Below the pieces are notes generated by a model, which saw only the letters and a list, made by a program, of their open reading frames with translations, did no database searches and was not told the DNA's origin. A stretch of 64,000 nucleotides of DNA from Micropepsaceae bacterium (GTDB lineage: Bacteria > Pseudomonadota > Alphaproteobacteria > Micropepsales > Micropepsaceae): contig JBGAPZ010000019.1 of the NCBI GenBank assembly GCA_044220975.1, forward strand, positions 2,138 through 66,137, written 5' to 3'. Below are positions 22,242 through 62,003 of this stretch, one piece after another. The position numbers and the translations under genes are program-made. Numbering within the stretch: position 1 is the first letter of the stretch; each line of letters begins with the position of its first letter.

Positions 22242-22283
22242 TTCTACATTTCACTTGATGTTCGTTGAGGAAATCGCGCGGTC

Positions 22284-23282: not shown

Positions 23283-23287
23283 TCGTC

Positions 23288-34963: not shown

Positions 34964-35018
34964 GTGGTGTGTCGGGCCGCACGTCACGTAACGCTGAGGT
35001 GAAAATGTTTCCGCGGGA

Positions 35019-35516: not shown

Positions 35517-35978
35517 TCAGTCGCGCGGATCTTGCTTCTTTTCGAACCGGCCGAAGAAGCGGTGGTCGATCGCCGCACCCAGGGTGAGCAAGATCAGCAC
35601 CATCCCGGCCGCTATGAACGCGATCGCATATTCGCCAAGGCCGCAGACCACGCCGATCGCGGCGGTGACCCAAACGGACGCCGCCGTATTCAAGCGATGA
35701 ACGTTTCCGGTTTCGTCGCGCATGATCACGCCGGCGCCCAAGAAGCCGACGCCGGCCAACACACCTTGGATGACGCGGCTCACCGCATCGGGGGAATATA
35801 CGGCCGCAAAGCCCGACACGGAGATGGTCGCCAGCGAAGCGCCGAGTGCGACCAAACCCAGCATCCGCAAGCCCGCAGGCTTGCCATGCATATCGCGATT
35901 GATCCCGATCGCACCGCCGATGGTAGCTGCTAGTCCCATGCGGATCGTAAGTTCGGCGAGGTGGCCTAAGTCAGTCAT
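35517..35978 (-). CDS. mgtC: MgtC/SapB-family membrane protein
   Basis: RMGLAATIGGAIGINR and a 4-5 TM profile. Confidence 0.8.
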   Translation of the reverse strand: MTDLGHLAELTIRMGLAATIGGAIGINRDMHGKPAGLRMLGLVALGASLATISVSGFAAVYSPDAVSRVIQGVLAGVGFLGAGVIMRDETGNVHRLNTAASVWVTAAIGVVCGLGEYAIAFIAAGMVLILLTLGAAIDHRFFGRFEKKQDPRD

Positions 35979-36136
35979 GGTGCTCCGGCTGCGCGTTGTT
36001 GCAGATGCTCAGTATACGACGGTTGAGCATCATCACCCGAATCTAACGGCCTAATCGTTAACGGCAGCTTCGTTGCGCCGCTGACGGTTCTCTGAGACGC
36101 TTGTCGAATCGGATAGCTCCGAGGGAGAGAAGCGTC

Positions 36137-37636: not shown

Positions 37637-37713
37637 CGGTGGAGTGACGTTTGAAGGAGGTTGCGCGCGGGCGCAGCCTCCTTTCTATTTGGGCGACATT
37701 TCGGAGCGCCCCC

Positions 37714-39081: not shown

Positions 39082-39088
39082 GGTCATC

Positions 39089-41640: not shown

Positions 41641-42503
41641 GTTCTCCCCGACTTCTTGTCGTCGAAGGCAACACGGCCGAGGGCCGGAAGTGGCATGCGG
41701 AGGCCGGCGGACGGATCGCCAGCGACAAGTACTCCGACGTGCTGCGCAAGCTGTGTCCGGCCGCGCGCGTCGATGTGTGCTTTCCGGCGGATTTGGGTGC
41801 GAACCTTCCTGATCGTGGTGGGATCGAGGGCTATGACGGCGTCGCGATCACGGGTTCTGCGCTGCACATCTACGATCTTGGTCCGTCGATCATGCGGCAA
41901 GTGGAGCTGGCGCGCGCTGTCTTTGAGACGGAGACGCCGTTCTTCGGCTCGTGCTGGGGCTTGCAGGTGGCGACGGTGGCCGCCGGCGGCACGGTGCGCA
42001 AGAATCCCAAGGGACGCGAACTCGGCTTTGCGCGCGGCATTATGCTGACGGAAGCGGGCGAGGAGCACGACCTCTTTTGGGACAAGCCGCCTGTGTTCGA
42101 TGCGATTACCGTTCACCTCGACGAGGTCGAGGAGACGGCGCGCGGGACCACGATCCTCGCCACGAACGCCGTGAGTGCGGTGCAGGCAGCGGAGATCAAG
42201 ACCCGGCGGTGTACGTTTTGGGGCGTGCAGTATCACCCGGAGTATTCGTTTAGCGACATCGCGATCATCACGAAGCGCGTGAAGCCGATGGCGATCGAAC
42301 AAGGGCTGTTCAAGGGCGACGTCGATCACGCGAGTTATGTGCGCGAGCTCGAGGCGCTTGAGAGCAACCCGAAGGACAGTGCCTTGACCTGGCGCCACGG
42401 GATCAGCGCGGCCGTGTACGACTTTGGCGCTCGCACGCAGGAGCTCAAGAACTGGATCGAGCGGTACGTGCTGCCGATGCGGAGCAAACGCGGGCGCGTC
42501 TGA
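41637..42503 (+). CDS. Class I glutamine amidotransferase-like hydrolase (candidate gamma-glutamyl-amide hydrolase)
   Basis: Nucleophile-elbow GSCWGLQV and a downstream H-P-E (QYHPE). ATGA overlap with the ADH stop. Confidence 0.75.
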   Translation: MSSPRLLVVEGNTAEGRKWHAEAGGRIASDKYSDVLRKLCPAARVDVCFPADLGANLPDRGGIEGYDGVAITGSALHIYDLGPSIMRQVELARAVFETETPFFGSCWGLQVATVAAGGTVRKNPKGRELGFARGIMLTEAGEEHDLFWDKPPVFDAITVHLDEVEETARGTTILATNAVSAVQAAEIKTRRCTFWGVQYHPEYSFSDIAIITKRVKPMAIEQGLFKGDVDHASYVRELEALESNPKDSALTWRHGISAAVYDFGARTQELKNWIERYVLPMRSKRGRV

Positions 42504-42511: not shown

Positions 42512-45500
42512 TCAGTGAAAGTTCCTTCCTTTCGGCATGACGGCGTGGACTTTGGTAGCGGCGCGGGCGTCGTATTCGACGACCGGCTGCAGCGGGCGGA
42601 CGTTGCGCGGGTGTTTGTGCAGCTGCGCGCGTTTTGCGCCCGGTGAGGTGCCTGAGTCGGGGGCGGGGCGTTTGACTTCGTCGGCGCGCGACATCGGTTC
42701 CAACACGCTTGTGTCGGCATGAAGGTCGCTTAGCATCGGCGTCAGATCTTCGATGTGATCGGCGATCACGTGGATGACACCGCTTTCGCTTTGCATCTTG
42801 CCGCGTACGGCGGCGAAGCGTGCGCCCAGGACCTGCGGACGGTACTCCTCGAACATCTTCGGCCAGACGACGACGTTGGCGACGCCGGTTTCGTCTTCGA
42901 GCGTCATGAAGATGACCCCCGATGCCGTGCCTGGACGCTGACGCACGAGAATGAGGCCCGCAACGGTGACGGCGCGGCCGTCTTTGACCGTCGACAGCGA
43001 CGCATTTTCGACGATCTGGCGTGCGTTCAATTGATCGCGCAGGAACGAGACGGGATGCGCTTTCAGCGAGAGATGCAGATGACGGTAATCTTCGACCACG
43101 TGTTCGCCGAGATGCATTGTGGGGAGCGCGAAGTCGGGTTCGTGATTGCGCGCGGAGGCTGCCGCGAGCAGCGGCAGGTCGTCCTTATCGCCGGTGCGGC
43201 GCAGGCCGCGGACCGCCCATAGCGCTTCGCGGCGGTCGAGGCCGATGGAGCGGAACGCGTCCGCGTCGGCAAGGCGCTCGAGCGTGGAGGGGTCGAGCCC
43301 GGTGCGCAGCCAGAGGTCGCGAATGGAGTCGTAGCCTTCGCCGCGGCGTTGTTCGATGAGCGTCGCGTCCGCTTCGACGAAGCCTGAGATCTGCCGGAAG
43401 CCGAGACGCATTGCGTGCGTGGTGCGAATGTCGCCTGTCATGTCAGCGTGACGTGGGTGAATTTTCATCACGGTGTCGTGCGACATGGGCTCAAGCGTAT
43501 TGTTCCAGCGCGAGTTGTTGATGTCGGCTGGGCGCATTTCGACGCCGTGTTCTTGGGCGTCGCGGACGATTTGGGCCGGGGCATAGAAGCCCATGGGTTG
43601 CGAGTTCAGCAGTGCGGCGGCGAAGACGTCGGGGTAGTGGCACTTGATCCAGCAGGAATAATAGACGAGCAGCGCGAAGCTGGCGGCGTGGCTTTCGGGG
43701 AAGCCGTAGTCGCCGAAGCCTTTGATCTGTTCGAAGCAGCGGGCGGCGAAGTCGGGCTCGTAGCCGTTCGCAACCATGCCGTCGATGAATTTGTCTTCGA
43801 AGGATTTGATCGTGCCCAAATGACGGAACGTCGCCATGGAGCGGCGCAGGCGATCTGCTTCGGCTGGTGTGAACTTCGCGGCGACGATTGCGATGCGCAT
43901 CGCTTGTTCTTGGAACAGCGGGACGCCCAGCGTGTTCTTTAGAACCTCTTCGAGTTCGGGTTTCGGGTAGTGGACCTTTTCCTTGTTTTGGCGGCGGCGC
44001 AGATAGGGGTGCACCATGCCGCCTTGGATCGGGCCGGGACGTACGATCGCGACCTCGATGACGAGGTCGTAGAATTTTTCGGGACGAAGGCGCGGTAGCA
44101 TCGACATTTGCGCGCGACTTTCGATTTGGAACACACCGATCGTGTCGGCCCGGCAGATCATCCGGTATACGTCAGGCTCTTCCTTCGGAATTGCGGCGAG
44201 GGCGGGTTCGAGACCGTAGTGATCGTGCAGCATCTCGAGCGCTTTGCGGATGCAGGAGAGCATCCCGAGCGCGAGCACGTCTACCTTGAGGATGCCGAGC
44301 GCATCGAGGTCGTCTTTGTCCCATTCGACGACGGTGCGCTTTTCCATTGCGGCATTTGAAACCGGGATCACTTCGTCGAGCCGTCCGCGCGTCATGACGA
44401 AGCCGCCGACGTGCTGCGAGAGGTGGCGCGGAAAGTCGATGAGTTCCTGCGCCAGCATGAGTGCTTGGGAAAGGCGCTTGTCCGTGGGATCGAGGCCGAT
44501 GCGGCGGACTTCGTTCTCGATCGGTGCTTCGGTGGACCAGCCCCAGAGCGTGCCGGCGAGCGCGCCGATCGTATCTTCAGAGAGGCCGAATGCTTTGCCG
44601 ACGTCGCGGATCGCGCTTCTGCCGCGATAGCAGATGACAGTGGCGGCGAGGCCCGCACGTTCGCGGCCGTAACGCTCATAGATGTATTGGATCACTTCCT
44701 CGCGCCGCTCGTGTTCGAAGTCGACGTCGATGTCGGGCGGTTCTTTCCGTTCGGCGGAGACGAAGCGTTCGAACAAAAGATCCACCTGCGTCGGATCGAC
44801 CTCGGTGACGCCGAGGCAGTAGCAGACGACGGAGTTCGCGGCCGAGCCGCGGCCTTGGCAGAGGATTTTTTCTGAGCGCGCGAAACGGACGATGTCGTGG
44901 ACGGTGAGGAAGTAGGGTGCGTAGTTCAGTTCGCCGATGAGCTTCAGTTCGTGGTCGAGCGCGTGGCGGACTTTCGGCGCGAGGCCACCCGGGAAGCGAT
45001 GGCGGGCGCCTTCTTCGGCGTAGTGGACGAGCGCCTCTTGCGTGCTTGCGAAACCTTCCTGGGCTTCATGCGGGTATTCGTAGCGTAGATCGTCGAGCTT
45101 GAAGCGGAGGCGTTCGGCAAAGCGGATCGTCTCGTCGATGGCGTTCGGAATTTGGCGATAGAGGCGGGCGATTTCGGTCGGCGCTTTCAGGTGACGTTCG
45201 GCGTTCGCCTCAAGCCTGAAGCCGGCGGCATCGAGCGTCGTGCGTTCGCGGATGCAAGTCAGCACGTCTTGCAGCACGCGGCGCTCGGGCGCGTGGTAGA
45301 GCACATCGTTCGCTGCGATCAGCGGAACATTGTGGCGGCGGCTGAGTGCGATCAGGCGCTTGACGTGGCGTTGATCGTCGCCGGTGTAGCGCAGCGTCGC
45401 GGCGAGCCAGATCGGCATGCCGCTTAAGCGATCGAGCGTTGGGCCTGCGGTTTCCGCGTTCGGGTGCGGTGGCATGAGGATGAGCTGCAGGCCTTCGCTG

Positions 45501-45847
45501 AACTCGATCAGATCGTCGAGGCAGAGGATGCAGTCGCCCTTTTCTGCGCGATGGTTGCCCACTGATAGCAAGCGTGTCATGCGACCGTAGGCGGCGCGAT
45601 CTTGCGGGTAGGCGAGGATGTCCGGCGTGCCGTCGGCGAAGACGAGCCTGGTGCCGACATGGAGCGGGAAGTTCAGCTCTTTCGCTTGCGTGTAGGCGCG
45701 AACCACGCCGGCGACCGAGTTGCGGTCGGCGATGCCGATCGCGGCGTGTCCGAGGTCGTGCGCTTGTTTGACGAGTTCTTTCGGGTGCGATCCGCCGCGC
45801 AGGAACGCGTAGTTCGTGGTGGTGACGAACTCGATATAGCGGGTCAT
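42512..45847 (-). CDS. dnaE2: Error-prone DNA polymerase III alpha homologue DnaE2 (ImuC)
   Basis: PHP domain start YIEFVTTTNYAFLRGGSHP and a full-length Pol III alpha core. It follows imuB. I chose the ATG at 45847. Confidence 0.95.
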   Translation of the reverse strand: MTRYIEFVTTTNYAFLRGGSHPKELVKQAHDLGHAAIGIADRNSVAGVVRAYTQAKELNFPLHVGTRLVFADGTPDILAYPQDRAAYGRMTRLLSVGNHRAEKGDCILCLDDLIEFSEGLQLILMPPHPNAETAGPTLDRLSGMPIWLAATLRYTGDDQRHVKRLIALSRRHNVPLIAANDVLYHAPERRVLQDVLTCIRERTTLDAAGFRLEANAERHLKAPTEIARLYRQIPNAIDETIRFAERLRFKLDDLRYEYPHEAQEGFASTQEALVHYAEEGARHRFPGGLAPKVRHALDHELKLIGELNYAPYFLTVHDIVRFARSEKILCQGRGSAANSVVCYCLGVTEVDPTQVDLLFERFVSAERKEPPDIDVDFEHERREEVIQYIYERYGRERAGLAATVICYRGRSAIRDVGKAFGLSEDTIGALAGTLWGWSTEAPIENEVRRIGLDPTDKRLSQALMLAQELIDFPRHLSQHVGGFVMTRGRLDEVIPVSNAAMEKRTVVEWDKDDLDALGILKVDVLALGMLSCIRKALEMLHDHYGLEPALAAIPKEEPDVYRMICRADTIGVFQIESRAQMSMLPRLRPEKFYDLVIEVAIVRPGPIQGGMVHPYLRRRQNKEKVHYPKPELEEVLKNTLGVPLFQEQAMRIAIVAAKFTPAEADRLRRSMATFRHLGTIKSFEDKFIDGMVANGYEPDFAARCFEQIKGFGDYGFPESHAASFALLVYYSCWIKCHYPDVFAAALLNSQPMGFYAPAQIVRDAQEHGVEMRPADINNSRWNNTLEPMSHDTVMKIHPRHADMTGDIRTTHAMRLGFRQISGFVEADATLIEQRRGEGYDSIRDLWLRTGLDPSTLERLADADAFRSIGLDRREALWAVRGLRRTGDKDDLPLLAAASARNHEPDFALPTMHLGEHVVEDYRHLHLSLKAHPVSFLRDQLNARQIVENASLSTVKDGRAVTVAGLILVRQRPGTASGVIFMTLEDETGVANVVVWPKMFEEYRPQVLGARFAAVRGKMQSESGVIHVIADHIEDLTPMLSDLHADTSVLEPMSRADEVKRPAPDSGTSPGAKRAQLHKHPRNVRPLQPVVEYDARAATKVHAVMPKGRNFH

Positions 45848-47391
45848 GCGAAGAGCCCGTGGACGAACCAGCGCGGGGCGTTGGTTTCGCGGGCGTAGAG
45901 GCCTTCGCGGTAGAGCCAGAAGCGACGGCCTTGGCGGTCCTCGACGCGGAAATAGTCGCGGGTGAGCGGGCGGCCTTCGCCGTCGCGCCACCATTCGGTC
46001 GCGATGCGTTCGGGTCCTTCGGTCGCGGCGACCTCGTGCATGACGCGGCGCCAGAGGAAGCGAGCTGGTGGACCGTCAGGCACTTCGGCGATGGCGTCCA
46101 CTTCTTCCGGGCGCTCCAGCATGCGTAGAGGACGTTCGCAAACGGCGTCTTGCGGTTTCGGTTTTCGTGCGGGTGCGGGTAGCGGGCCGTTGCGCGCGGG
46201 TGCTTCGATGACGGCGTATTCGGGGATGTGGCTTTCGGCGAAGCCCAGACGCTTCACGCGCAGCATGCCGAAGCGCACGCCCAGGCGGTCGATCAGGTGG
46301 TCGACGTCGTCGTGGCCGTGCACGCCGTTGACAATGTCGGTTTGCGGCGCGTTCGTCTTTTCGGCCGTTATTACGGCGAGGCGTACGACGTCGAAGCCGA
46401 AGCCGGGGTCGAGTTCGTCGGCGAGCGTGGCGAAGCGTTCTCTGAACAAGCGGCAGAGTGCCTGCGGGTCGCGCAGCGGCTTTGAGGTTGCGACGGAGAG
46501 GCGGCGGACCGCGCCGTCGACGCGATAGAGCGTCACCTGCAACGCGCGGGCGCCTTCGCCGCGTTCCTCCATGCGCTTGGTGAGTTCGAGGGCGAGGTGT
46601 TCGACGATCTCCAAGACGTAGGCTTCGTGCGTGACCGGCTCGGCGAAGCAACGCTCGGCGATGTAAGGCGGCACGGGCAGGCGCGGGGTGATCGGTTCTT
46701 CGACGGTCCCTAAGGTTTCATCGAGGCGGCGGAGCAGGGCGGCGCCGAAGCGGGCGGCGAGCGGCGCACGCGGGCGGCCTTCGATGTCGGCGACCTTCTT
46801 CAATCCGACGCGGGCGAGGGCGTCGAGTTTGTTCGCGTCGAGGCGCAGCGCTGCGAGCGGTAAAGGCAGGATCGTTGCGCGAAGCTCGGCGTTGTCGATG
46901 ACGCGTTTGTCGGCGAACCGGGCCAACGCCCAGGCAGCGCCGACGGTGCCGGCGATGGCCGTGCGTGCCGTGAAGCCTTGGAGGCTTAGCTTTCGCACGA
47001 TGTCTTTGCGCATCGCTTCTTCGCCGCCGAAGAGGTGTGCGCAGCCGCTGATATCGAGCATCATGCCGGCGTCGCTCAACCCCACGAGCGGGGTGTAGCG
47101 GCCGAGCCAGTCGCAGATCGCTTCCGCGAGGCGCTGGTCGGCGGCCGGGTCGGCGTGATCGACGGCGAGGCTTGGGTGCATCGCGCGGGCGTCGGCAAGC
47201 GGCTGGCCCACGCGCAGGCCGAGCGCTGCGGCTTCAGCGTTCATCGCGCTCAGGCGGAGCGCGCTTTTGACCTCCGTTACGATGACACGCGGATCACGCG
47301 GTCTTGGCGAGCTGCCACGTTCGATCCGGTCGGTCGGCAAATGGACGAGCCAGACGGCGAGATAGCGGCGGGATTGCAAATGTGCGCTCAT
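45844..47391 (-). CDS. imuB: ImuB, Y-family polymerase-like protein of the SOS mutagenesis cassette
   Basis: YLAVWLVHLPTDRI N-terminus and position between imuA and dnaE2. The stop overlaps the dnaE2 start. The start is either ATG 47391 or TTG 47430. Confidence 0.85.
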   Translation of the reverse strand: MSAHLQSRRYLAVWLVHLPTDRIERGSSPRPRDPRVIVTEVKSALRLSAMNAEAAALGLRVGQPLADARAMHPSLAVDHADPAADQRLAEAICDWLGRYTPLVGLSDAGMMLDISGCAHLFGGEEAMRKDIVRKLSLQGFTARTAIAGTVGAAWALARFADKRVIDNAELRATILPLPLAALRLDANKLDALARVGLKKVADIEGRPRAPLAARFGAALLRRLDETLGTVEEPITPRLPVPPYIAERCFAEPVTHEAYVLEIVEHLALELTKRMEERGEGARALQVTLYRVDGAVRRLSVATSKPLRDPQALCRLFRERFATLADELDPGFGFDVVRLAVITAEKTNAPQTDIVNGVHGHDDVDHLIDRLGVRFGMLRVKRLGFAESHIPEYAVIEAPARNGPLPAPARKPKPQDAVCERPLRMLERPEEVDAIAEVPDGPPARFLWRRVMHEVAATEGPERIATEWWRDGEGRPLTRDYFRVEDRQGRRFWLYREGLYARETNAPRWFVHGLFA

Positions 47392-48277
47392 GGGATTGCC
47401 ATTCGACGCGCCATTGGCCGCACTGGCCAAAGCGGTTTTTTACAAGATCAAGCTGGAACGTGGGTGGGCCGAGCCCGCCGAACGCGTCGGGTAGACTTGG
47501 CGCGGATCCGATTTGCCAGCGCGTGGTCGCGGCGTTCGGTTCGATGGCGCTTGCGTGGCGCAGGATGAGACCGAGGCCACCCCCTTCTTGCGCGGCGAGG
47601 GCCAGACGCCTTGTCATCGTGAGGTCGAGCACGCGCGTTGCCGGCGGGAACTCCGCGATGACGGCGGCGAAACCGCGGCACTTCAGTGCCTCCCCCATCG
47701 CCCAGAGCACATCTTCGGCGCGCGGTACGTTCAGATAGATCAGCGCGCGCGTGTCGACGCCCGAGAACGTTAGGCCGGGCAAATAGGGGCGGCCGAACTC
47801 GGCGGCGGTGAAGTCGTGCTGGATATAGAGCGTGTGCGCGGTCGGCGTTTCGGCGCGTGCGGCGAGGCCGAAGACGAAGCCCGCGGCCGAGGCCATGTCG
47901 GGTGCGCCCTTCGGCATGAACTCGTGGATCGTGCCGCGCATCAGGCCGCCGTTCAGTGTCGCGTCGATCGCGGCCGCGCCGGTCGCGACGGGCGGGCGCG
48001 AACGCGGGTCGGCCTTGCGCAGGCATGCAGCTTCGATCGCCGCGATCGTTTGGCGGAGCGCCGTGCCGTCAGGTCGAGGGCTCAGTTCGCGGCGGGCAGG
48101 CGAGAGATGTAAAATCTCATCCGTTATATGCGTTATTTTGGCTGAATTCCGCGGTTTTATCCGTTCGGAATCCGTTCGGAATCCGTTATTTGCCGTATCC
48201 TCTGCATTGGGTGCGCAGACGGTTTCGAAGGTTTGCTCAGGAGACACGTCGTCCTCCGCCGCCATCGCTTTTGGCAC
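47294..48277 (-). CDS. imuA: ImuA, RecA-fold SOS mutagenesis protein (start codon uncertain)
   Basis: LNGGLMRGTIHEF and a C-terminal ..RNRFGQCGQWRVEW. The first roughly 55 codons of the ORF fall in an AT-rich repeat region that may be promoter rather than coding sequence. Confidence 0.75.
   Translation of the reverse strand: MPKAMAAEDDVSPEQTFETVCAPNAEDTANNGFRTDSERIKPRNSAKITHITDEILHLSPARRELSPRPDGTALRQTIAAIEAACLRKADPRSRPPVATGAAAIDATLNGGLMRGTIHEFMPKGAPDMASAAGFVFGLAARAETPTAHTLYIQHDFTAAEFGRPYLPGLTFSGVDTRALIYLNVPRAEDVLWAMGEALKCRGFAAVIAEFPPATRVLDLTMTRRLALAAQEGGGLGLILRHASAIEPNAATTRWQIGSAPSLPDAFGGLGPPTFQLDLVKNRFGQCGQWRVEWQSHERTFAIPPLSRRLARPFADRPDRTWQLAKTA
48163..48188. promoter_or_regulatory. Second LexA-box-like element, GTTCGGAATCCGTTC, followed by a third imperfect repeat (GGAATCCGTTA)
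   Basis: GTTC-N7-GTTC at 48163-48177, with an 11-bp unit repeated about 2.5 times. It lies inside the ORF-track imuA N-terminus. Confidence 0.45.
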
Positions 48278-51620: not shown

Positions 51621-52583
51621 ATGAAAGCTGCCGTCTACTACGAGAATGGTCCGCCGTCCGTATTGAAGTATGAGGATGTCGAGGATCCGATTTGTTATGC
51701 GCCGGGTGTCGTCATCAAGGTCGAGGCGGTTTCGATCGAAGGCGGCGATACGCTGAACCGCCTTGGCGGCGCCCTAATCACTTCGCCGCATATCGTCGGG
51801 TATCAGGCGGCCGGAACGATCGTTCAGGTCGGAAAAGAGGTCACGCACCTCAAAGTTGGGCAGAAGGTTGTGACGGTGAACGCGTTCGGTAGCCACGCGG
51901 AATTGCGCGCGGTGCCTGCGCGCAATGCGTGGGTCATTCCGGACGGGTTCGACGTGCGCGAAGCTTCGGCAATTCCGGTACCGTTCGGGACGGCGGATGA
52001 TTGCTTGTTCGAGTTCGGGCGGCTGAAGGCCGGCGAGACCGTGCTAGTGCAAGCGGGTGCCGGCGCGGTCGGGATCGCGGCCATTCAGCTGGCAAAGCGA
52101 GCCGGTGCGCGCGTGCTTGCGACGGCATCCAGCGACGAGCGGCTCGCGAAGTTGAAGCCGCTCGGCATGGATCACGGCATCAACTATGCGAAGCAAGACG
52201 TGGTGCAAGAGGTGATGAAGTTCACCGACAACAAGGGTGCCGACGTCGTGGTCGATCCGGTCGGCGGGTCGACGTTACAGAAAAGCCTGCTGTCGCTGGC
52301 GGCGCGCGGGCGCTGTTCAATGGTCGGCAATGCGGGGCGCGAGGCGCAGAAGCTGGATGTGTCGAGCTTGATGGCGGGCAACCGGTCGCTTACCGGCGTG
52401 TTCTTAGGCGCCGAGATTTTCACCGACCGCGTGCACGACATGATCCAACGCCACATCGACGACGCGGCGAAGGGGAAGCTCAAGGTCGTGATCGACAAGA
52501 CGTTTCCGTTGAAGGATGCGGCTGCCGCGCACGCCTATATCGAGAGCCGTCAGGCGGTCGGGCGGGTGTTGTTGATACCTTAG
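51621..52583 (+). CDS. Zinc-type alcohol dehydrogenase superfamily, NADPH:quinone oxidoreductase-like
   Basis: MDR fold with the GAGAVGIAAIQLAK Rossmann motif. Confidence 0.85.
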   Translation: MKAAVYYENGPPSVLKYEDVEDPICYAPGVVIKVEAVSIEGGDTLNRLGGALITSPHIVGYQAAGTIVQVGKEVTHLKVGQKVVTVNAFGSHAELRAVPARNAWVIPDGFDVREASAIPVPFGTADDCLFEFGRLKAGETVLVQAGAGAVGIAAIQLAKRAGARVLATASSDERLAKLKPLGMDHGINYAKQDVVQEVMKFTDNKGADVVVDPVGGSTLQKSLLSLAARGRCSMVGNAGREAQKLDVSSLMAGNRSLTGVFLGAEIFTDRVHDMIQRHIDDAAKGKLKVVIDKTFPLKDAAAAHAYIESRQAVGRVLLIP

Positions 52584-54019
52584 AACCGTCCGCCCGTGCG
52601 GAAGCCGCCGCGGCCGCCGCCGATTTTTATGCCGCCGATTTTGGGAAAGCCGCTTGAGGGCAGGCGGAAGCCACCGTCCCAAGGACTTTTGCGGCGCCGG
52701 TCGTCGTCATCGTCGTCGTCCCAGTCGCGCCTTCGGCTGTAGCCGCGGTTGAAGACGTCCCAAAGGACGGCACCTTGGATCGCGCCGCGGACGATGCCGC
52801 CGATTAGATCGCCAAGCGCGTCGTTGCGGTCGAGTTGGAACTGGCCCCAGGGGCCGTCGTAATTGTTCGCGCGGACCTTATCGCGAACGCCTTCGAGTTC
52901 GCTGCGGCGGCGAGCGATTTCGCGGGTCTCGTCGCGGATCTTCGCGACCTCGGTTTCGGCTTTTGCAATTGCGTTTTGCGCGAGTTCGATCTGCTGCACC
53001 AGCCGGTCGTCGTCGGTCGTGCGGGTCGTGCGCGCTTCGCGGTACATGGTTTGCAGGTCTTCACGCGCGATCGCCTGGGAGAGCACGGCGAGCGCCTCAT
53101 CGTGGGCACGGCGGTCGCCTTCATCCAGAAGTTTCGTGCGTTCTTGGTCGAGCGCGGCTAGCGCTGCTTGTGTTTTGGCGAGCGCTTCGCTTGCTGCCTT
53201 CAGGTCCGCTTGAGCGGTAGCAAGTTTCGTTTCGAGGGAAAGGATGCCCGCTCCCACGAGGGCCGCCCGCTCGATCTCTTCCAGCTTGTGATCTTCGTCT
53301 GCGACGCGCTTGACGAGCTCGGTCGCGTGTTCGCGCAGGCGCAGGGGAATTTCGTTCAGCAACGCGTAGTTCGGCCGCGCCGTTTCGTAACCGACAACGC
53401 GCGCGACCCAGCGGTCGATGGTGCGCGCGAAGTTGCCTGCTTTGTAATCCGCGGTCGCGAACTTGCGTTTCCACAAATACATGAATAGCGGATCGGCTTC
53501 GTAGGGTTTGCGCTTCGCGCCGAGGTCGGCTTCCGATTGTTTCGCCTTGTCTTCGGCCGCTCCAGCGACGCTTGTGACTTCCGTCAGCCGCGCCTTTTGC
53601 GCGGTCCAGGCGGGGTCGGACGCCAACTTCTGTTCGACATCGTGTTGCAGCGCTTTGATCGGTTCGCCCGCGGCTTCGACCGCGGCGGTCTTGGCGCGAT
53701 GGTCGGCTTCGGCAGCGACGACGCCGCTTTGCGCGCCGCCGTGGCGGATCAAGAGTTGATCGAGTTTCGCCTTGTGGGTGCGCAGCAAGTCCAACGCTCG
53801 GCGTTCGGCGGCGTCGAGGTCGCCCACGATCTCGTTGCGCACGAGCGCGTCTAGGCGGATGAGCGCCAGGCCGCGAAAGCTATCGGCGAGCTGCTTGCGC
53901 TGGCGTTCGGCTTCGCCGGCGGCAGACGCCAGCACCGCCGCCAAGCGGTTCTCGTTCGAGCGGACGCCGGCGATGGCGCTTTCGACTTCGGAGAGAGCGT
54001 CGCGACTGGATACCAACAT
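52580..54019 (-). CDS. Long coiled-coil protein of unknown function with an acidic run and a Gly/Arg-rich C-terminal tail
   Basis: 479-aa protein, largely heptad-like Ala/Glu/Lys/Arg-rich, with a central segment DPLFMYLWKRKFATADYKAGNFARTIDRWV. The C-terminus reads ...RDWDDDDDDDRRRKSPWDGGFR...GGIKIGGGRGGFRTGGRF. Its start abuts the upstream stop. Confidence 0.7.
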   Translation of the reverse strand: MLVSSRDALSEVESAIAGVRSNENRLAAVLASAAGEAERQRKQLADSFRGLALIRLDALVRNEIVGDLDAAERRALDLLRTHKAKLDQLLIRHGGAQSGVVAAEADHRAKTAAVEAAGEPIKALQHDVEQKLASDPAWTAQKARLTEVTSVAGAAEDKAKQSEADLGAKRKPYEADPLFMYLWKRKFATADYKAGNFARTIDRWVARVVGYETARPNYALLNEIPLRLREHATELVKRVADEDHKLEEIERAALVGAGILSLETKLATAQADLKAASEALAKTQAALAALDQERTKLLDEGDRRAHDEALAVLSQAIAREDLQTMYREARTTRTTDDDRLVQQIELAQNAIAKAETEVAKIRDETREIARRRSELEGVRDKVRANNYDGPWGQFQLDRNDALGDLIGGIVRGAIQGAVLWDVFNRGYSRRRDWDDDDDDDRRRKSPWDGGFRLPSSGFPKIGGIKIGGGRGGFRTGGRF

Positions 54020-54967
54020 CTACTCGTCGTCCCACGATGTGATGGCGCCTGGAAGCACCGACATTGTGTAACGGGGGTCGATTTCGCCGCGCTGCTTTTG
54101 GCCCAGGATGCGGTTCTCGATGATGCCGTTATCGCGCTTGTCGCGGGCGACGGCGTCGAACGTCGCTTGGGGCACGCGCTGCCCCCAAGCGTTGACGTTG
54201 TAGCTGCGGCCGTCTTCCTCGTTTGTGACGGGCATGGTGAGCGTGCGGCCGTCGGCACCGATGGGTTCGACCACGATGTAGTAGTTGCGCGCGCTCTCGT
54301 TCACGTTCGGGATGCGGAAGAATCCGGTCGTGCCGTCGGCAACGATGCGCAGTTGGTAGGTCTGGACGAGTTTCGCGCGCAAGGTTTCCAAGTTCGCGAT
54401 GGCCGTTCGCGCGCCGGTGGCATCGTTCACGGCCAGCGCCGCTTGGCCGTCGCGGAGCAGGCCGCCGGCTTCTGCTTTGACTGAATCGACCCGGGCTTCG
54501 GCGATGACGGCGGTGTGGGCGGCAGCGAGCGACTTCGGCAGCGTTTCGGTGAGTTCGATGCGAGCGGATTCGGTCGCGCGCTCGGCTGGGACGACGACGC
54601 CGTAGTGGTAACCGCCCCAGAGCGCGGTCACGCCAATCAGCAGCGCGCTTGTCCAACCGACAATCATGCCGCGCCTGACCCACATGAGCGCGAGCGATCG
54701 GCTGAGGCCCGGTAACGGTGCCGTATAGGTGAAGCGGCTTTCCTTCAGCGCTTTGATACCTTCGTCGATGGCGCCGTCCGTGACCTCGATGCCCTGGCTT
54801 TTGTAAATTTCGCGCAGGCGCTTTCTGAGATCGTCGTCGCGATTGGCCTGGCCGAGTTCACGCTCGACCAGAAGCTCGCGCTGACGGATCGTGTCGACCA
54901 CGTCCATCGCGACCATCAGTTCGTCGAGGGTCTGCGGCTTGGTCGCGACCGCGGTGGCGCCTGACAT
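54020..54967 (-). CDS. Single-pass membrane protein of unknown function
   Basis: 315-aa protein with a cytoplasmic N-domain, one TM helix (IVGWTSALLIGVTALWGGY) and a roughly 190-aa C-domain. Its start overlaps the upstream stop by 1 nt. Confidence 0.7.
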   Translation of the reverse strand: MSGATAVATKPQTLDELMVAMDVVDTIRQRELLVERELGQANRDDDLRKRLREIYKSQGIEVTDGAIDEGIKALKESRFTYTAPLPGLSRSLALMWVRRGMIVGWTSALLIGVTALWGGYHYGVVVPAERATESARIELTETLPKSLAAAHTAVIAEARVDSVKAEAGGLLRDGQAALAVNDATGARTAIANLETLRAKLVQTYQLRIVADGTTGFFRIPNVNESARNYYIVVEPIGADGRTLTMPVTNEEDGRSYNVNAWGQRVPQATFDAVARDKRDNGIIENRILGQKQRGEIDPRYTMSVLPGAITSWDDE

Positions 54968-56142
54968 CAGAGGTTGAAGGCTTTCCCTTGGGCGACGAGG
55001 GCCGCGAGCCGGCGTTTGCCGTCTTCGACGGCGTCGCGGATCTCAGCCGAGTTTTGGGTCGCGAGCTTACGCATCTCGTCGATAATGATGCGCGACTTTT
55101 CTTGGAAGTTCACGACGCTGTCGACGAGCTTCTTCACCGCGTCGGCGCGAATGGTCGGTCCGTAGCCGGCGCGAACCGCCGCTTCCTGCACCTTGTCGCC
55201 AATTTCGGAGAGAACCTCGATCGACTTCGAGACGCCTTCCTTCATCGCGTTCACGGTTTCGGTGGATTCGTGCAGGCCGAACATGCCGGTGAACGAGGCC
55301 TTGAGCGCGGTCAGAACCGTGTCGTTCGTCGAGAAGAACGAAACGGCTTGCGCGTAGATGCGTTCCTTCGCGCTCGTCGTTTGCATCAGGCGCGCCATGA
55401 TGACTTCGGAGGTGTTGTAGCCGATCGTCAGGTTGTCGCTCAGATCCTTCGCGATCTGATAGCGTTTGTCCTCGTCCTGCGTTTGGCGAAGCACCTCGTC
55501 GCGTATGAGTTCGAGCTTCGCGCGCTCGGCGGGCTCGGTGCCTGCGAAGGTGGCGACGGCGTTCGCCGCCTCGTTCAGCTTCTTCTTTGCTTCGTCGAGT
55601 TTCCACTCGGCCTTCTTCAAGACCTCCAGCGCCATGACCTCGGATTGCTTCAAGGCGCCGCGGAAATCACGGTAGGCTTCCAGGATCGCGGCTTCACGCT
55701 CAATCTGGTTCTTCGTTTCCTTCGTGACGTTGATGTAGATCTGGCGGATTTTGTCGAAGCGGTCGGCAACGTCGCCACGCGTGAGCTTCATCCATGAGTT
55801 CGTCGCGCGCTCCCAGACGCTGACCTTGCCGTCGGAAATCTGATCGACCATCGCTTTCGCATCGTCGCGGATGGAGTTGAAGCCTTCGGTGATCTGGCGG
55901 TAGCGATCGCCTACCTGCATGGCGGCCACGTGTTCGCGTACGACTTCGTTGAAGTTCGATGCCTGGTTCAGCGTGCGGGCGATGATCGTGATGCGATCTT
56001 GGTCGAGATCCGATATCTGCTGGAGAAGCGCGTTGATCGGGGCGTCTTCGCCTTTGTTCGCGGGGACGATGCCCATTTCGCGCAAGGTTGAAAGTGCGCG
56101 GTCGAGATATTGCATAGGCGAGCGGACGACGACGTCGGACAT
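54967..56142 (-). CDS. TelA/YceH-like (toxic anion resistance family-like) helical protein; the family call is tentative
   Basis: 391-aa all-helical protein whose organisation and length resemble TelA-family proteins. RBS GGGAGGAA lies before the ATG at 56142. Confidence 0.6.
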   Translation of the reverse strand: MSDVVVRSPMQYLDRALSTLREMGIVPANKGEDAPINALLQQISDLDQDRITIIARTLNQASNFNEVVREHVAAMQVGDRYRQITEGFNSIRDDAKAMVDQISDGKVSVWERATNSWMKLTRGDVADRFDKIRQIYINVTKETKNQIEREAAILEAYRDFRGALKQSEVMALEVLKKAEWKLDEAKKKLNEAANAVATFAGTEPAERAKLELIRDEVLRQTQDEDKRYQIAKDLSDNLTIGYNTSEVIMARLMQTTSAKERIYAQAVSFFSTNDTVLTALKASFTGMFGLHESTETVNAMKEGVSKSIEVLSEIGDKVQEAAVRAGYGPTIRADAVKKLVDSVVNFQEKSRIIIDEMRKLATQNSAEIRDAVEDGKRRLAALVAQGKAFNL

Positions 56143-56236
56143 CAAAGGTTCCTCCCAGCGGAAACGCGCGGAAACATGTGGCCCCTTCACGGCGGTTGTG
56201 CAAGGTTTGCGCGTAAATTATTGGCCGGAGATAGCG

Positions 56237-57019
56237 ATGATAAGGGCCGGAATCGGCGGTTGGAATTTCGCGGAATGGCGGGGGACGTTCTATCCGAAGG
56301 GGCATCCTCAGGCGAAGGAACTGGACTTTGCCTCCCGCGTGCTGACGTCGATCGAGATCAACGGCACGTTCTATCGCACGCCGTCGGCCGAGACGTTCGC
56401 GAAGTGGGCGGCGGAGGTTCCGGACGGGTTCGTGTTCTCCGTGAAGGGGCCGATGTCGGTTGTCGGCAAAGGCGTGCTCGCGGAGACGGGGCCTGCGCTG
56501 GAGCGGTTTTTTGGCAGCGGCGTTTTGGGGATGGGCGACCGGCTTGGCGCATTCTTCTGGCAGTTCATGCCGGCGAAGAAGTTCGATCCGAAAGATGTCG
56601 AAGCGTTTTTCAAGATGCTGCCGAAGGAAGCCAAGGGCCGGAAGCTGCGCCATGCCGTTGAAGCGCGGCACGCGACATTCGCGGTGCCGGAATTTGTCGA
56701 GTTGGCGCGAAAGTATGGTGTCGCGGTCGTGTTGGTGGACAGCGAGAAGCATCCGCTGATCGCCGATCCGACGTCGGACTTCATGTATCTGCGCTTGCAG
56801 CGGACACAGGAGAAGGTTGCGACCGGTTATAAGCCCGCTGAGATCAAGACGTGGGCAGCGCGCGCCAAGACATGGGACGCGGGCGGGGTGCCAGCAGATC
56901 TTGCGTTGATCGGAAAGAAGCCCGTGAAGCAGAAGCGCGACGTGTTCGTCTATTTCATCAGCGGTGCGAAGGTTCGTGCGCCGGCAGCCGCGCAGGCGTT
57001 GATCGGGGAAATTAGCTGA
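56237..57019 (+). CDS. DUF72 (YecE-like) family protein
   Basis: IGGWNFAEWRGTFYP...INGTFYR. I chose the ATG at 56237. Confidence 0.8.
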   Translation: MIRAGIGGWNFAEWRGTFYPKGHPQAKELDFASRVLTSIEINGTFYRTPSAETFAKWAAEVPDGFVFSVKGPMSVVGKGVLAETGPALERFFGSGVLGMGDRLGAFFWQFMPAKKFDPKDVEAFFKMLPKEAKGRKLRHAVEARHATFAVPEFVELARKYGVAVVLVDSEKHPLIADPTSDFMYLRLQRTQEKVATGYKPAEIKTWAARAKTWDAGGVPADLALIGKKPVKQKRDVFVYFISGAKVRAPAAAQALIGEIS

Positions 57020-57225: not shown

Positions 57226-57720
57226 ATGAAAACGAAGCTCATGGGATTCGTCTGCGCGGCCGCACTCGTGGCGATGCCTGCGGTCGGTATTGCGGCGACC
57301 GCGACGACGACGTTTCAGGTTACTGCGACCGTGATCTCGGTTTGCACAGTCAGTGCGACCGACCTCGCGTTCGGCAACTACGACGCCAGCGCCGGTGCGC
57401 CGAACGACAACACCAGCACTGTCAGCGTCACGTGCTCGAACGGGTCGCCTTACACGGTTGCGCTCGATGCGGGCACCGGAACGGGCGCCACGGTGGCCGT
57501 TCGCCGTATGAGCAACGGCGGCAATACGCTCGACTACAGCATGTACACGACGGCGGGCCGCACGACGGTTTGGGCTGACGGTACGGGCGGCACCTCGACG
57601 CAGGCGGGCACCGGTAATGGCGCCGGGCAGAACTTCACGGTCTTCGGCCGCATTCCGACCGGTCAGTTCGTGACCGCCGGCAGCTACGCCGACACGGTTA
57701 CGGCGACCGTCACTTACTAA
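57226..57720 (+). CDS. Spore-coat-U (SCPU) domain pilin, Csu-type fimbrial subunit
   Basis: Signal peptide, then TTTFQVTATVISVCTVSATDLAFGNYD...VTC...TVTATVTY. Confidence 0.85.
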   Translation: MKTKLMGFVCAAALVAMPAVGIAATATTTFQVTATVISVCTVSATDLAFGNYDASAGAPNDNTSTVSVTCSNGSPYTVALDAGTGTGATVAVRRMSNGGNTLDYSMYTTAGRTTVWADGTGGTSTQAGTGNGAGQNFTVFGRIPTGQFVTAGSYADTVTATVTY

Positions 57721-57751
57721 GACGCGCTTCGCTTCTTGTCTCGAACGGCAC

Positions 57752-57772
57752 CCCAGCGGGTTAACCGCTGGG
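57752..57772 (+). terminator. Hairpin (8-bp stem CCCAGCGG/CCGCTGGG, 5-nt loop) after the first pilin gene; possible attenuating terminator
   Basis: It sits 32 nt after the stop of pilin 1. There is no U-tract. Confidence 0.4.
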
Positions 57773-57838
57773 TAACCGTACTCGCGTACCGTTTATCCGT
57801 CGCCGCTTCTCATCATTGGCCGACGGAAAACAAAACTC

Positions 57839-58351
57839 ATGCGCGGGTTCGCTCAATACAGATCTAAGCTGCTGGGCCTTGTGTCCGTGGCCGTTGTCCT
57901 TGCGACGCCGGCTGCCGGTATCGCGGCCACTGCCACAACGACGTTTCAAGTCACGGCGACTGTGCTTTCGGTGTGCACGGTCAGCGCAACCAATCTTGCC
58001 TTCGGCAACTACGACGCCAGCTCCGGCACGCCGAACGACGCGAGCAGCACCGTCACAACGACGTGCTCGAACACGACCGCCTATACGGTTGCGCTCAACG
58101 CCGGTACGGGCTCGGGCGCGACGGTTGCTCTTCGCAAGATGACGAACGGCGCAAATACGCTGAATTACAGCATGTATACGACGGCAGGACGCACGACGGT
58201 GTGGGGCGACGGAACCCTCAGCACCGTCACGCAAGCCGGCACCGGCAACGGCAGCGGTCAGGCGCTCACCGTATTCGGGCGCATTCCAACGAGCCAGTAC
58301 GTCACCGCGGGCAGCTACACGGACACGGTCACGGCGACCGTCACCTACTAG
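57839..58351 (+). CDS. SCPU-domain pilin, paralogue of the preceding gene
   Basis: Same motif set as pilin 1, with long stretches of near-identical nucleotides. Confidence 0.85.
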   Translation: MRGFAQYRSKLLGLVSVAVVLATPAAGIAATATTTFQVTATVLSVCTVSATNLAFGNYDASSGTPNDASSTVTTTCSNTTAYTVALNAGTGSGATVALRKMTNGANTLNYSMYTTAGRTTVWGDGTLSTVTQAGTGNGSGQALTVFGRIPTSQYVTAGSYTDTVTATVTY

Positions 58352-58369
58352 GCGAACGAGAGGAAAGTC

Positions 58370-59209
58370 ATGCATCTATCGATTCGGGTGGGTGCATTGC
58401 GCCTTTGCGCAGCGCTGCTCGCCTCGCTCTGCGTCGCGCCGGCCTCTGCCGCCAGCCTCGAAGTCGCTCCCACAAAGCTCGTCGTCGACGGCAAGTCGGG
58501 CGCGGCCACACTCAATCTCGCCAATCGCGGGACCGTTCCGATTATCGTCCAGCTCGAAGGGTTCATTTGGGAGCAGAAGGACGGCAAGGACGTTTTGACA
58601 CCGACCGACGCCGTGCTGGTCAGTCCGCCGATGGCCCGTATTCCGCCCGGCGGGAAGCAGACGGTGCGCATCATGGCACGCGGCGACGGCACGCCCGGCG
58701 TGGAGCGGACCTTCCGCCTGTTCGCAAGCGAACTACCGGATCCCTCGACAGCCGAAGCGCGCACGATTCGCGTGCTCTTGCAGTTCAACGTGCCGCTTTT
58801 CGTCAACACGCCGTCGGTTGCCGCTCCGCAAGTCGCTTGGGCGGCGCAGATGGGCGCTAAGGGCTTGCTGCTAGACGCGCGCAACCTGGGACGGGCGCAC
58901 ACAAAGTTCACGAAGATCGAAGTTATCACGCAATCGGGGCGGCGGGTGCCGGCAACCTCAGAGGGCGTTCCTCACCTGCTCGCGGGTGCGACGCGGTTGT
59001 TTGCGGTTGCCGGTGCCTTCTCCCAAGGCGAGAAAGTGATCGTCGAGGCTCACACCGACGACAGCGACGTTGTGATCCGCGAAGCGGTCGAGGTGCATCG
59101 GTGTGATGCGCGCACTCGCGTCCATATTCGCGATCGCGCTCTACCTTGCTTCGGTGAGCCCCGCGCTTGCCGAAGCGGCCAGCGCCGAGCCGCGCAATCT
59201 CGTGCTTGA
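58370..59209 (+). CDS. Periplasmic pilus chaperone (PapD/CsuC-like)
   Basis: Signal peptide, then LEVAPTKLVV...ATLNLANRG...VQL and ...FRLF..ELP. The 3' end overlaps the usher start by about 100 nt. Confidence 0.8.
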   Translation: MHLSIRVGALRLCAALLASLCVAPASAASLEVAPTKLVVDGKSGAATLNLANRGTVPIIVQLEGFIWEQKDGKDVLTPTDAVLVSPPMARIPPGGKQTVRIMARGDGTPGVERTFRLFASELPDPSTAEARTIRVLLQFNVPLFVNTPSVAAPQVAWAAQMGAKGLLLDARNLGRAHTKFTKIEVITQSGRRVPATSEGVPHLLAGATRLFAVAGAFSQGEKVIVEAHTDDSDVVIREAVEVHRCDARTRVHIRDRALPCFGEPRACRSGQRRAAQSRA

Positions 59210-61418
59210 AGTTTGGCTCAACGGTGCGTCGCGCGGGCTCGTCGTGAGCGTGGCCGAACGCGCCGGCGATTTGTACGTCGAGCGGTCGGACCTCGGCGCG
59301 ATCGGGCTCAAGAACGTCGAAGACGGCGAATGTCAGGGCGAGCTTGTCCCGCTCAACCGCATCAGCGGCGTGCGCGCGAGTGTCGAAGAGGTCAAGCAGC
59401 TGCTCTTGGTTGTTGCGGCGCCGACGCGTCTTGCGGTTACGACGATTGGCTTGAGAGGCAGCGATCGGCAGTTCGTAGCCGACACGCCTATCACCGCCTT
59501 TGCGGCCGAGTACGATGTCGTTTTGACCGGAAGCGATGTCACTTCGTCTCTGCGAAGTACGTCGATCGACGGCACGCTGGCTCTCTCCGCGTTTACACCG
59601 ATCGGAACGTTCACGACCAACGGGTTTGCCGTCGTGGATGACAACGGTCGAAAAGCGCTTAGGCTCGACAGTTCGTGGACGATCGACGATCCGCCCGAGC
59701 TTAGGCGGCTCACTGTCGGCGATGCGGTTTCAGGCGGGGTCGGTTGGTCCCGCTCCGTGCGTTTTGGCGGCGTGCAGATCGCGCGCGACTTTTCGCTTCA
59801 GCCGGATCTCGTCACGATGCCGATGCCTGATTTCTTCGGCGAGACGGCAGTTCCGGGTTCGATCGATGTGTTCGTCGGCGCTTCGAAGGTGTTGTCCGAA
59901 GACGTGCCGGCGGGTCCCTTCGACGTACGCGACTTGCCGATCGTCACGGGGGCGGGTCAGGCGACGGTCGTTGTGCGCGACCTGCTCGGCCGAGAGACCC
60001 GCCGGACGATCAGCTACTACACGGACAGCGAGATGCTAGCGCAGGGACTGACCTCCTATAGCGTCGAGGCGGGCTTTTTGCGGAAATCCTACGGCCTGAA
60101 GAGTTTCGACTATGGCGACGCGCTCGTATCAGCGACCTTGCGGCACGGCTTGAGCGACGACTTCACGATCGAGGGACACGCCGAGGCGACGCCTTCGGTC
60201 GCAGTCATCGGTGTGGGCGGCGTGGTTTCGCTGTTCGACTTCGGATCGTTGCGCTTGGCTGGCGTGGGAAGCTCAAGCGAGGCCGGCGACGGCGGCTTCG
60301 GATCGATGGCGCTTTCCATGCAGTTCGGGCCCGCAAATCTTTTTGCCAGTTTCGAAGCGGCAACGCCGGCCTATCGCGACGTCGCCGCGATCGACGATGC
60401 GTCGTCTTTGCCACGCGAGACCTTGCAACTCGGCGGCGGGTTGGACCTTCAGGACTACGGTTCGGTGTCGATGACTTATTTGCGCCAAGAGCAGCAGAAC
60501 CACGAGCGAACGACCCTGGCGACGGCCACCTATTCGATGTCGATCGGGAGCGCCACCTTCGGTGTGACGAGTGTCTATGACGTCGAGCGCGATGCGCTTT
60601 TGGCCGAGACGTTTCTCACCGTTCCGTTGGGCGGCGGAGGGCCTTACGCCACCGCTGCAGTGACCGCGCACGAAGGTGATACGGAAGTGCGCGCGACGCT
60701 CGAACAGCCGGCCTCGCCGGACGGCGTTCTCGGGTATCGGCTGAAAGTCCGTCAGGACAGCGACTTAACACAATTCAACGCGGATGGCCGCTGGGAAGGT
60801 CAGAATGCAGCTCTCGACGGAAGGCTCGCGCTGGCCGACGGCTACTTATCGGCGCAGGCCGAAGCGGCGGGTGCGATCGTTTCGACGGGCGACGCCGCCT
60901 TCTTCACGCGTAAGCTCGACGGCGCGTTCGCCCTTGTCGATGCGGGTGCACCGGGTGTCCGTCTCTACCGCGAAAACCGCTTGGTTGCAGAATCCGACGA
61001 AAGCGGCGTCGCGTTGCTCACCGGGCTGGTACCGTTCACGCGCAATCACATTGCGGTGGATCCGGCGGGCTATGACATGTCTCAGGTGCTGGCACGAACG
61101 GACCTCGACCTCGTGCCGGGCCGCGGCGGTGCTTCGGTTAGCTTGGCGCCGGAGAAGGAGAGCCCGCTGTCGCTTTCGGTGACGCTGCCGGACGGCATAT
61201 TCCCGGACGTGGGGACGACGGTGCATTTGTCGGGCGATCCGAACCCTTGGATCGTGGGGTATCACGGGGCCTTGTTCATCGCGGACTTAAAGTTGCCGCT
61301 GGAGGTCGAGCTTGAAACCAAGTTCGGCCTGTGCCGGCTCAAGTTGACTGAGCCACCTCGTCAGACTCCGGGCGAGATCCCGCGAATGGGTCCGGTGGCG
61401 TGCGCGTTCGATCGGTGA
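59106..61418 (+). CDS. Outer-membrane fimbrial usher (CsuD-like)
   Basis: About 770-aa protein with a signal peptide MRALASIFAIALYLASVSPALA and beta-barrel-type composition. It is positioned after the chaperone. Confidence 0.85.
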   Translation: MRALASIFAIALYLASVSPALAEAASAEPRNLVLEVWLNGASRGLVVSVAERAGDLYVERSDLGAIGLKNVEDGECQGELVPLNRISGVRASVEEVKQLLLVVAAPTRLAVTTIGLRGSDRQFVADTPITAFAAEYDVVLTGSDVTSSLRSTSIDGTLALSAFTPIGTFTTNGFAVVDDNGRKALRLDSSWTIDDPPELRRLTVGDAVSGGVGWSRSVRFGGVQIARDFSLQPDLVTMPMPDFFGETAVPGSIDVFVGASKVLSEDVPAGPFDVRDLPIVTGAGQATVVVRDLLGRETRRTISYYTDSEMLAQGLTSYSVEAGFLRKSYGLKSFDYGDALVSATLRHGLSDDFTIEGHAEATPSVAVIGVGGVVSLFDFGSLRLAGVGSSSEAGDGGFGSMALSMQFGPANLFASFEAATPAYRDVAAIDDASSLPRETLQLGGGLDLQDYGSVSMTYLRQEQQNHERTTLATATYSMSIGSATFGVTSVYDVERDALLAETFLTVPLGGGGPYATAAVTAHEGDTEVRATLEQPASPDGVLGYRLKVRQDSDLTQFNADGRWEGQNAALDGRLALADGYLSAQAEAAGAIVSTGDAAFFTRKLDGAFALVDAGAPGVRLYRENRLVAESDESGVALLTGLVPFTRNHIAVDPAGYDMSQVLARTDLDLVPGRGGASVSLAPEKESPLSLSVTLPDGIFPDVGTTVHLSGDPNPWIVGYHGALFIADLKLPLEVELETKFGLCRLKLTEPPRQTPGEIPRMGPVACAFDR

Positions 61419-61524
61419 TGCAGGGGCGTCCGCCAGTGGTTGATTTTTCGTAAATAGCGGAGAGCGGTTTGCGCAAATAATGGCCGGGGTCGGTGCCGGA
61501 TGTTGCGGTACTATCGTAGGTGTC

Positions 61525-62003
61525 ATGCGTTCCATCGTCATTGCAATAGCGCGCGTCCGCGCGGTTGTTGGAGTTGTCGCAGCGCCCTGCGTGGCGGTCG
61601 CCGCAACTTGCAACACCGGTGGGCGCCCGCTGCTGGTCTCCGCCACGAATCTGAATTTCGGCAACTACACCGCATCTTCGGGGACACCGAACACATCAAC
61701 GATGACGGTGACAGTCAGTCGACAATTCGCGGCCGTGCCGCGTTCGTGGCTGCGCAGGCTGGCGTCGCACCGACATACAATCCTCGCCAAATGGCGCTCG
61801 GCGCGAACAGGTTGAACTACAACATCTTCAACCAGAACACCGACACCACAATTTGGGGCGACGGCACGGGCGGGACGCTCACCAGGAGCTATGGCGGCGG
61901 CGGAAACTCCGCGGCCGGAACGGGAATCGGCCGGATAACGACAGGCCAATACGTGACGCCCGGCGTTTACACCGACACGATAACGGTGACGATCACTTAC
62001 TGA
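61525..62003 (+). pseudogene. Third SCPU-domain subunit, interrupted by a frameshift
   Basis: The N-terminal half (MRSIVIA...ATCNTGG...LNFGNYTASSGTPNTSTMTVTVS) is in the frame of ORF 61480..61815. The C-terminal half (..AAFVAAQAGVAPTYNPRQMALGANRLNYNIF...YTDTITVTITY) is in the frame of ORF 61500..62003. The switch lies at about 61715-61745. Confidence 0.65.

Follow-up and report, generated by a model that had tools for sequence, protein, structure and literature searches.

Membrane repair by PspA and ESCRT-III proteins combines a helical scaffold with a small membrane anchor. Proteins of the TelA type have been tied to peptide-antibiotic tolerance and to phage competition. In the accessible part of one source, TelA is proposed to form sub-membrane structures that act against the entry of phages or xenobiotics (PMC7824862), and a meeting abstract links TelA, together with XpaC, to phospholipid domains and to the binding of daptomycin (PMC6811118). 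Here, we describe a three-gene module from a Micropepsaceae bacterium (assembly GCA_044220975.1, contig JBGAPZ010000019.1), located in a window of 64,000 nucleotides whose numbering is used throughout. Translation of the window gave three minus-strand open reading frames free of internal stops, encoding 391 (gene 1; 54967..56142), 315 (gene 2; 54020..54967) and 479 (gene 3; 52580..54019) amino acids. An original prediction, made from the DNA letters, had given the same lengths and abutting arrangement: genes 1 and 2 overlap by one nucleotide at 54967 (TGATG), and the stop codon of gene 2 abuts the start codon of gene 3 at 54020/54019 (TAG-ATG). The module is a single copy in the source genome. 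It is real and widespread, and represents a variant of the TelA-plus-membrane-partner kind.

The three genes are inherited together as a unit. Partners were sought by tblastn in the best 80 of 317 genome loci, and gene 2 was present in 77, gene 3 in 74 and all three in 74. In all six incomplete loci the sequence ends at most 900 nt after gene 1, close to a contig edge, and the genes do travel together in the neighbourhood check that the original prediction had proposed. Across 301 evenly sampled Pseudomonadota genomes, strong matches to gene 1 and the C-terminal head of gene 2 mark the same five genomes; a sixth gene 1 match (E 1e-7), to a long membrane protein whose tail is helical, aligned over a coiled coil only and was discarded. 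Within the genus, gene 2 is found in 23 of 24 genomes and gene 1 in 22 of 24, with TelA in 1 of 30. Complete trios reside on megaplasmids of Pseudomonas, Methylorubrum and Rhizobium, on prophage-like contigs with an integrase on one side and a repressor-like gene on the other, in the jumbo phage phiR1-37 (g190-g192) and on archaeal contigs, one archaeal copy (L172:2027-6158) lying inside an RNA polymerase-NusA-S12-EF-2 gene cluster. Gene 1 is carried by 11 plasmids of 0.3-1.4 Mb and by two of 50,697 phage records, both from a single phage; a scan of viral contigs with one distant homologue as query gave no match. Among relatives with a name, the closest carry the label Micropepsaceae or Alphaproteobacteria. 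Several loci (L003, L006, L008, L009, L012, L015, L019 and L057) are titled Flavobacteriaceae or Leptospira, their proteins being 73-98% identical to alphaproteobacterial copies, and these assemblies are probably mislabelled or contaminated.

Gene 2 is the only member of the trio with a Pfam assignment, DUF6384 (PF19911), which the original prediction had overlooked and which covers residues 9-312 (389.6 bits, E 1.2e-116); genes 1 and 3 have no family in Pfam, NCBIfam, PADLOC or PHROGs. The layout foreseen for gene 2 was recovered, with a helical N-domain (about residues 9-100; 54668..54943), a single hydrophobic stretch at residues 101-119 (54611..54667) and about 195 residues beyond it. From hydrophobicity and charge asymmetry, this transmembrane helix is predicted to run N-in/C-out, as Lys and Arg are richer on its N side in 107 of 138 homologues and on its C side in 7, which would place the N-domain in the cytoplasm as a candidate partner of gene 1. 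Comparison of homologues divides the remainder into a helical stalk (54371..54610), about 62-256 residues long across 113 homologues, and a C-terminal beta head (54023..54370). The structure model, of the head only, is confident (predicted local distance difference test, pLDDT, 93) and has no clear match among solved structures (best VIA Z 3.3 with weak OB-like rows; best Foldseek E 0.29), which does not prove a new fold. In many distant loci a mini form of gene 2 ends directly after the membrane helix, and the N-domain is retained in every mini form. Gene 2 is a membrane anchor, and its indispensable part is the cytoplasmic domain with the membrane helix. No long gene 2 fusion was seen among proteins of 848-2420 residues, a weak test.

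The family of gene 1 is large (614 clusters at 50% identity, from matches with E up to 0.001) and bears automatic names such as 'cell surface protein' (NCBI) and 'merozoite surface protein 3b', and the sequence of gene 1 is far better conserved than those of genes 2 and 3. Gene 1 has no transmembrane helix, and its model, built from an alignment of 83 rows, is all-helical (pLDDT 76). In a viral fold search, TelA-annotated phage proteins took ranks 3, 5, 6 and 31 as full-length matches (E 3.7e-4 to 3.5e-2; TM 0.27-0.49, up to 0.49/0.52), and gene 1 scores 0.96 with an Atlas cluster in which 52% of the members carry TelA; both sides of this comparison are predicted models and the support it gives is moderate. 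Neither gene 1 nor the rest of the source genome has a match to Pfam TelA (PF05816). An hhalign comparison with TelA aligned 202 columns at E 0.0025, the C-terminal half being collinear. Because fold matches exist among viral and Atlas models but Pfam gives no match and the profile link is weak, we read gene 1 as a probable remote TelA fold and not as a TelA family member; the TelA likeness earlier suggested for it holds at the level of the fold, as does its all-helical character. One false gene 1 match (L086, G002:C117) is a membrane protein of 736 residues that carries a long helical tail and, by eye, resembles ZorA.

Gene 3 is a coiled coil with a conserved aromatic block; a low-complexity linker that varies among homologues leads to an FxTGGxF motif at the C-terminal end. 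The central DPLFMYLWKRKF block (residues 176-187; 53459..53494), previously noted as conserved-looking, is indeed conserved in the family alignment: across 72 rows L182 is invariant, and F179, Y181, Y192, D202 and A206 are each kept in at least 90%. The Asp7 run (52700..52720) and the Gly/Arg tail are both present as described; the poly-Asp is lineage-specific, lying in the variable linker and mostly limited to the closest relatives, and the conserved tail element is instead the last seven residues, FRTGGRF (52583..52603), which the gene 2 head is a candidate to bind. The tail may resemble the Gly-rich tails of TPM-domain proteins. A signal-like N-terminus is absent from gene 3 and from all 111 homologues inspected. 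Pfam IM30 matches none of the 72 members, comparison with the Atlas gave unnamed clusters only, and the sole PADLOC 2.0 match was LmuB against gene 3 (E 0.15-0.18). Searches of PDB sequences with gene 1, its alignment, the gene 2 head and gene 3 returned coiled-coil or chance matches only. With g192 kept out of the alignment, gene 3 matches this phage protein at a probability of 82.9% (E 9e-6), and the gene 3 hidden Markov model finds g192 at E 1.8e-6 compared with E 1 for the reversed sequence; a probability of 99.7% was discarded as circular, g192 having been in the query alignment. No enzyme domain was found in the three proteins and no named system in PADLOC, NCBIfam or PHROGs matches them, in agreement with the original prediction.

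The head of gene 2 and the tail of gene 3 appear to vary together. In the 105 loci where genes 2 and 3 are both complete, a count that leaves out incomplete loci and includes kin as separate loci, the tail motif is found in 84 of 89 with the head versus 1 of 16 without it, and a matrix built from 65 alphaproteobacterial tails can tell the remaining 24 tails apart from those of the 16 head-less loci. Placed on a tree, the pattern requires 5 changes and gives 3 well-supported independent head-tail pairs. The predicted head-tail complex scores 0.41, with the best control at 0.01; the mark used for such complexes is reached by 116 of 157 solved pairs and by 2 of 215 mismatched pairs, with 18 of the solved pairs and both mismatches at scores of 0.60 or below. 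Contact agreement between runs was at least 48% and the pLDDT of the partner 47; the model gives weak support for a complex. Covariation and complex prediction are thus two weak lines in agreement. As gene 3 has no signal-like N-terminus, the head and tail, if they are a real pair, would have to meet across the membrane.

The tight junctions at this locus had been taken as a sign of stoichiometric co-production, which is not supported as a property of the family, gene 1 often being set apart by hairpins, a terminator or divergent transcription. In 73 loci with automatic start calls, the gap between genes 1 and 2 ranges from -8 to 399 nt, with a 1-nt overlap in 18 and more than 100 nt in 15 (one of them a start mis-call); gene 2-3 junctions above 100 nt are one true gap and two frameshift artefacts. 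Many of the long gene 1-2 gaps fold as long hairpins when folded without a shuffled control. At this junction, loci L005, L007, L009-L011, L040, L041 and L045 carry different palindromic elements of 140-220 nt, independent insertions that may be miniature mobile repeats stabilising the gene 1 transcript, and a VapD-like gene (NF041506, E 1e-17, below the cut-off) sits there in L076:7218-7574. In the best 80 of 490 distant metagenome loci, many of which are planctomycete-like on our reading of their neighbour genes, gene 1 is divergent from genes 2-3 in 46 and tandem in 14, with 14 too short to judge. Genes 2-3 occur without gene 1 in phage Dfl-JY45, and gene 2 stands alone on a Rhodanobacter plasmid; in both cases neither gene 1 nor the N-domain of gene 2 was detected. 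In phiR1-37, the annotation places a terminator after g190. According to the portion of the transcriptome study available, g190-g192 are highly transcribed from the earliest time points and throughout infection (PMC4848604), and the corresponding part of its Table S2 lists them as constitutive, at 32,683-41,993 for g190, 13,922-16,006 for g191 and 16,261-24,416 for g192, with g190 exceeded by only two or three genes among g129-g283 and no virion-protein mark on any of the trio (PMC4848604). By these values the gene 1 transcript is about 1.7-2.7 times those of g191 and g192, which speaks against equal output. From the gaps, divergent layouts, losses of gene 1 and phiR1-37 transcripts taken together, genes 2-3 behave as a fixed pair, and gene 1 as a subunit that is abundant and can be separated from them. 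Two sequencing runs contained less than 10% of the module words, and an RNA run covering gene 1 only, in distant contigs, was set aside, as gene 1 conservation alone explains it.

By analogy with TelA, we tentatively favour, at a little under an even chance, a non-enzymatic membrane-protecting module made up of a TelA-fold scaffold, a DUF6384 anchor and a coiled-coil partner. Linkage, architecture and relative expression are observed directly; oligomerisation, contacts and function are modelled on TelA. Gene 1 would oligomerise on the cytoplasmic face of the membrane, recruited by the N-domain of gene 2, and gene 3 would serve as a rod-like partner made together with gene 2. The assembly could then seal or stiffen the membrane at sites of damage or penetration by peptides, pores or incoming phage. 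In the most speculative step, the outward head of gene 2 might grip the FxTGGxF tail, which it could reach solely at a breach or crossing of the membrane. In favour of such a module stand the co-occurrence of the three genes, linkage kept despite rearrangement (the 46 divergent and 14 tandem loci), the near-core presence in the genus, the fold link of gene 1 to TelA, the joint absence of gene 1 and the gene 2 N-domain in two cases, and the weak head-tail signals. Several points weigh against it. None of 83 gene 1 homologues matches Pfam TelA at E 0.01, and the hhalign probability of gene 1 against 22 TelA sequences is 11.7%, a very weak sequence link. In 6 of the best 80 distant loci, gene 1 has long flanks and no partner nearby. 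The tail motif was defined from the same data as its test, and, because related loci are not independent, only 3 head-tail pairs are usable (2.8 in the same direction and 0 in the opposite one; p 0.25 by a sign test). Predicted topology sets head and tail on opposite sides of the membrane, and phage exclusion would explain the presence of the module in phages and prophages no less well. To our knowledge, the mechanism of TelA itself is unproven, and we know of no phenotype or stress expression for any cellular copy. A bolder version, which we regard as improbable, would be a cross-membrane machine of bacteria, archaea and phages in which the DUF6384 head, as an outward receptor whose fold is unclassified, captures the FxTGGxF peptide of a cytoplasmic coiled coil at a breach or on a threaded tail and nucleates the TelA-fold scaffold, phages using it to seal their cell or exclude competitors.

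Among the alternatives, a membrane-acting superinfection-exclusion or anti-phage system that blocks DNA entry or attacks early infection vesicles, mobile and domesticated in some lineages, is a less likely explanation that deserves serious weight. Phage and prophage carriage favours it: phiR1-37 holds a complete trio that is transcribed early and highly and is not among the virion proteins in the part of the study available, and the integrase-repressor placement on prophage-like contigs, the large plasmids, the patchy occurrence in Pseudomonadota (5 of 301 genomes) and the conservation of gene 1 far above its partners point the same way, as does the proposal, in the accessible part of its source, that jumbo-phage TelA counters superinfection (PMC7824862). 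Its retention as a single copy, near-universal in the genus, disfavours this explanation, the flanks hold neither defence genes nor conserved neighbours, the best PADLOC match reaches only E 0.15, no effector domain was found, and the module is rare in phages. Exclusion and membrane protection are readings that overlap.

An export channel or pore related to the ClyA family, with gene 1 as the pore beside gene 2 and gene 3 threaded tail first to be caught by the head outside, would resolve the opposite-side topology of head and tail, and chains of the ClyA family lead the results of the two PDB fold searches with the gene 1 model (XaxA Z 10.3, root-mean-square deviation 6.9 over 231 aligned residues; AhlC Z 9.4; ClyA Z 9.1), with MakE, AhlB and SmhB also among the Foldseek matches. 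Z values below about 13 are, however, common among helical bundles by chance, Foldseek gave E 4.4e-3 and nothing below 0.001, no 19-residue window exceeds a hydropathy of 1.6 in any of 83 gene 1 homologues (insertion might still be amphipathic), and there is neither an immunity gene nor a signal-like N-terminus on gene 3, leaving a pore quite unlikely. Least probable is a literal tellurite or toxic-anion resistance determinant, as the TelA name implies: its sole support is the fold likeness of gene 1 to TelA-annotated proteins, against which stand a neighbourhood without conserved Ter genes, the lack of Pfam TelA membership and conserved columns without Cys/His-rich metal sites.

The Ter/Yce-type context earlier suggested for this locus was not recovered, as no flanking family is present in more than 8 of the 62 loci clustered from the best 80 genome loci. 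On plasmids, one copy is found close to a type IV CRISPR csf2 gene (L088:16797-17122), another close to a PRTRC system (L120:1-5050) and a third close to a StiP gene (L090:4501-5571), each a single case. In the window, profile matches identify a divergent DUF72 gene (56237-57019, +), about 94 bp from gene 1 and a module neighbour in close relatives only, and a convergent zinc-binding dehydrogenase gene (51621-52583, +), the stop of which overlaps that of gene 3 at 52580-52583 and therefore leaves no space for a terminator. Gene 1 is preceded by a ribosome-binding site, GGAGGA (56150..56155, minus strand), 7 nt upstream of its ATG at 56142; promoter and terminator scans gave no signal exceeding shuffled controls. 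Judged from translations, 42512-48277 (-) resembles an imuA-imuB-dnaE2 mutagenesis cassette, and 57226-62003 (+) a Csu-type chaperone-usher fimbriae cluster with repeated small pilin-like genes.

A literature search found no publication on the module and none that mentions DUF6384, although supplements of bioRxiv preprints and of a jumbo-phage review, which lay outside the search, could list the genes; DUF6384 partners, mini forms and head-tail covariation were likewise not found in print. As a self-contained module, the trio names partners for a TelA-type protein and provides a natural minimal form of scaffold, tail-anchored N-domain and coiled coil. Tractable hosts are available in the Methylorubrum extorquens AM1 megaplasmid and phage phiR1-37, and the head-tail pair offers a concrete peptide-domain interaction for testing. 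If the proposal is true, DUF6384 gains a role, and a new mode of sensing membrane breaches may emerge.

Compared with described systems, the module shares with TelA/KlaB/YaaN (PF05816) and XpaC a similar protein length, an all-helical fold, a membrane-anchored partner gene and carriage by jumbo phages, and differs in its DUF6384 partner, third coiled-coil subunit and optional extracytoplasmic head, gene 1 itself lying outside Pfam TelA. Against genes flanking TelA in 22 loci, gene 2 profiles reached a best E of 0.57, revealing no XpaC-type partner, and the gene 3 profile a best E of 0.008, at the level of coiled coils. Gene 2 is a full member of DUF6384, a family without an assigned function. 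Unlike a Ter/Yce stress cluster, the 62 loci have no conserved Ter, vWA or PRTase neighbours, with one StiP near one plasmid copy. With ClyA-family alpha pore-forming proteins, gene 1 shares a long helical bundle, with fold scores that are not decisive. As described in the accessible part of a preprint, the Dionysus (DinABC) anti-jumbo-phage system likewise comprises three genes, acts on membranes and includes a ClyA-like subunit, but its DinC has four membrane helices and its DinB is TerB-like, and the module has neither (bioRxiv 10.1101/2025.09.30.679545). The PspA/ESCRT-III machinery differs in that the module has no Pfam match to it and gene 1 reaches PspA only at rank 37 (Z 8.0 over 134 residues); by analogy, its assembly of a scaffold recruited by an anchor may serve as the working model for the module described here.

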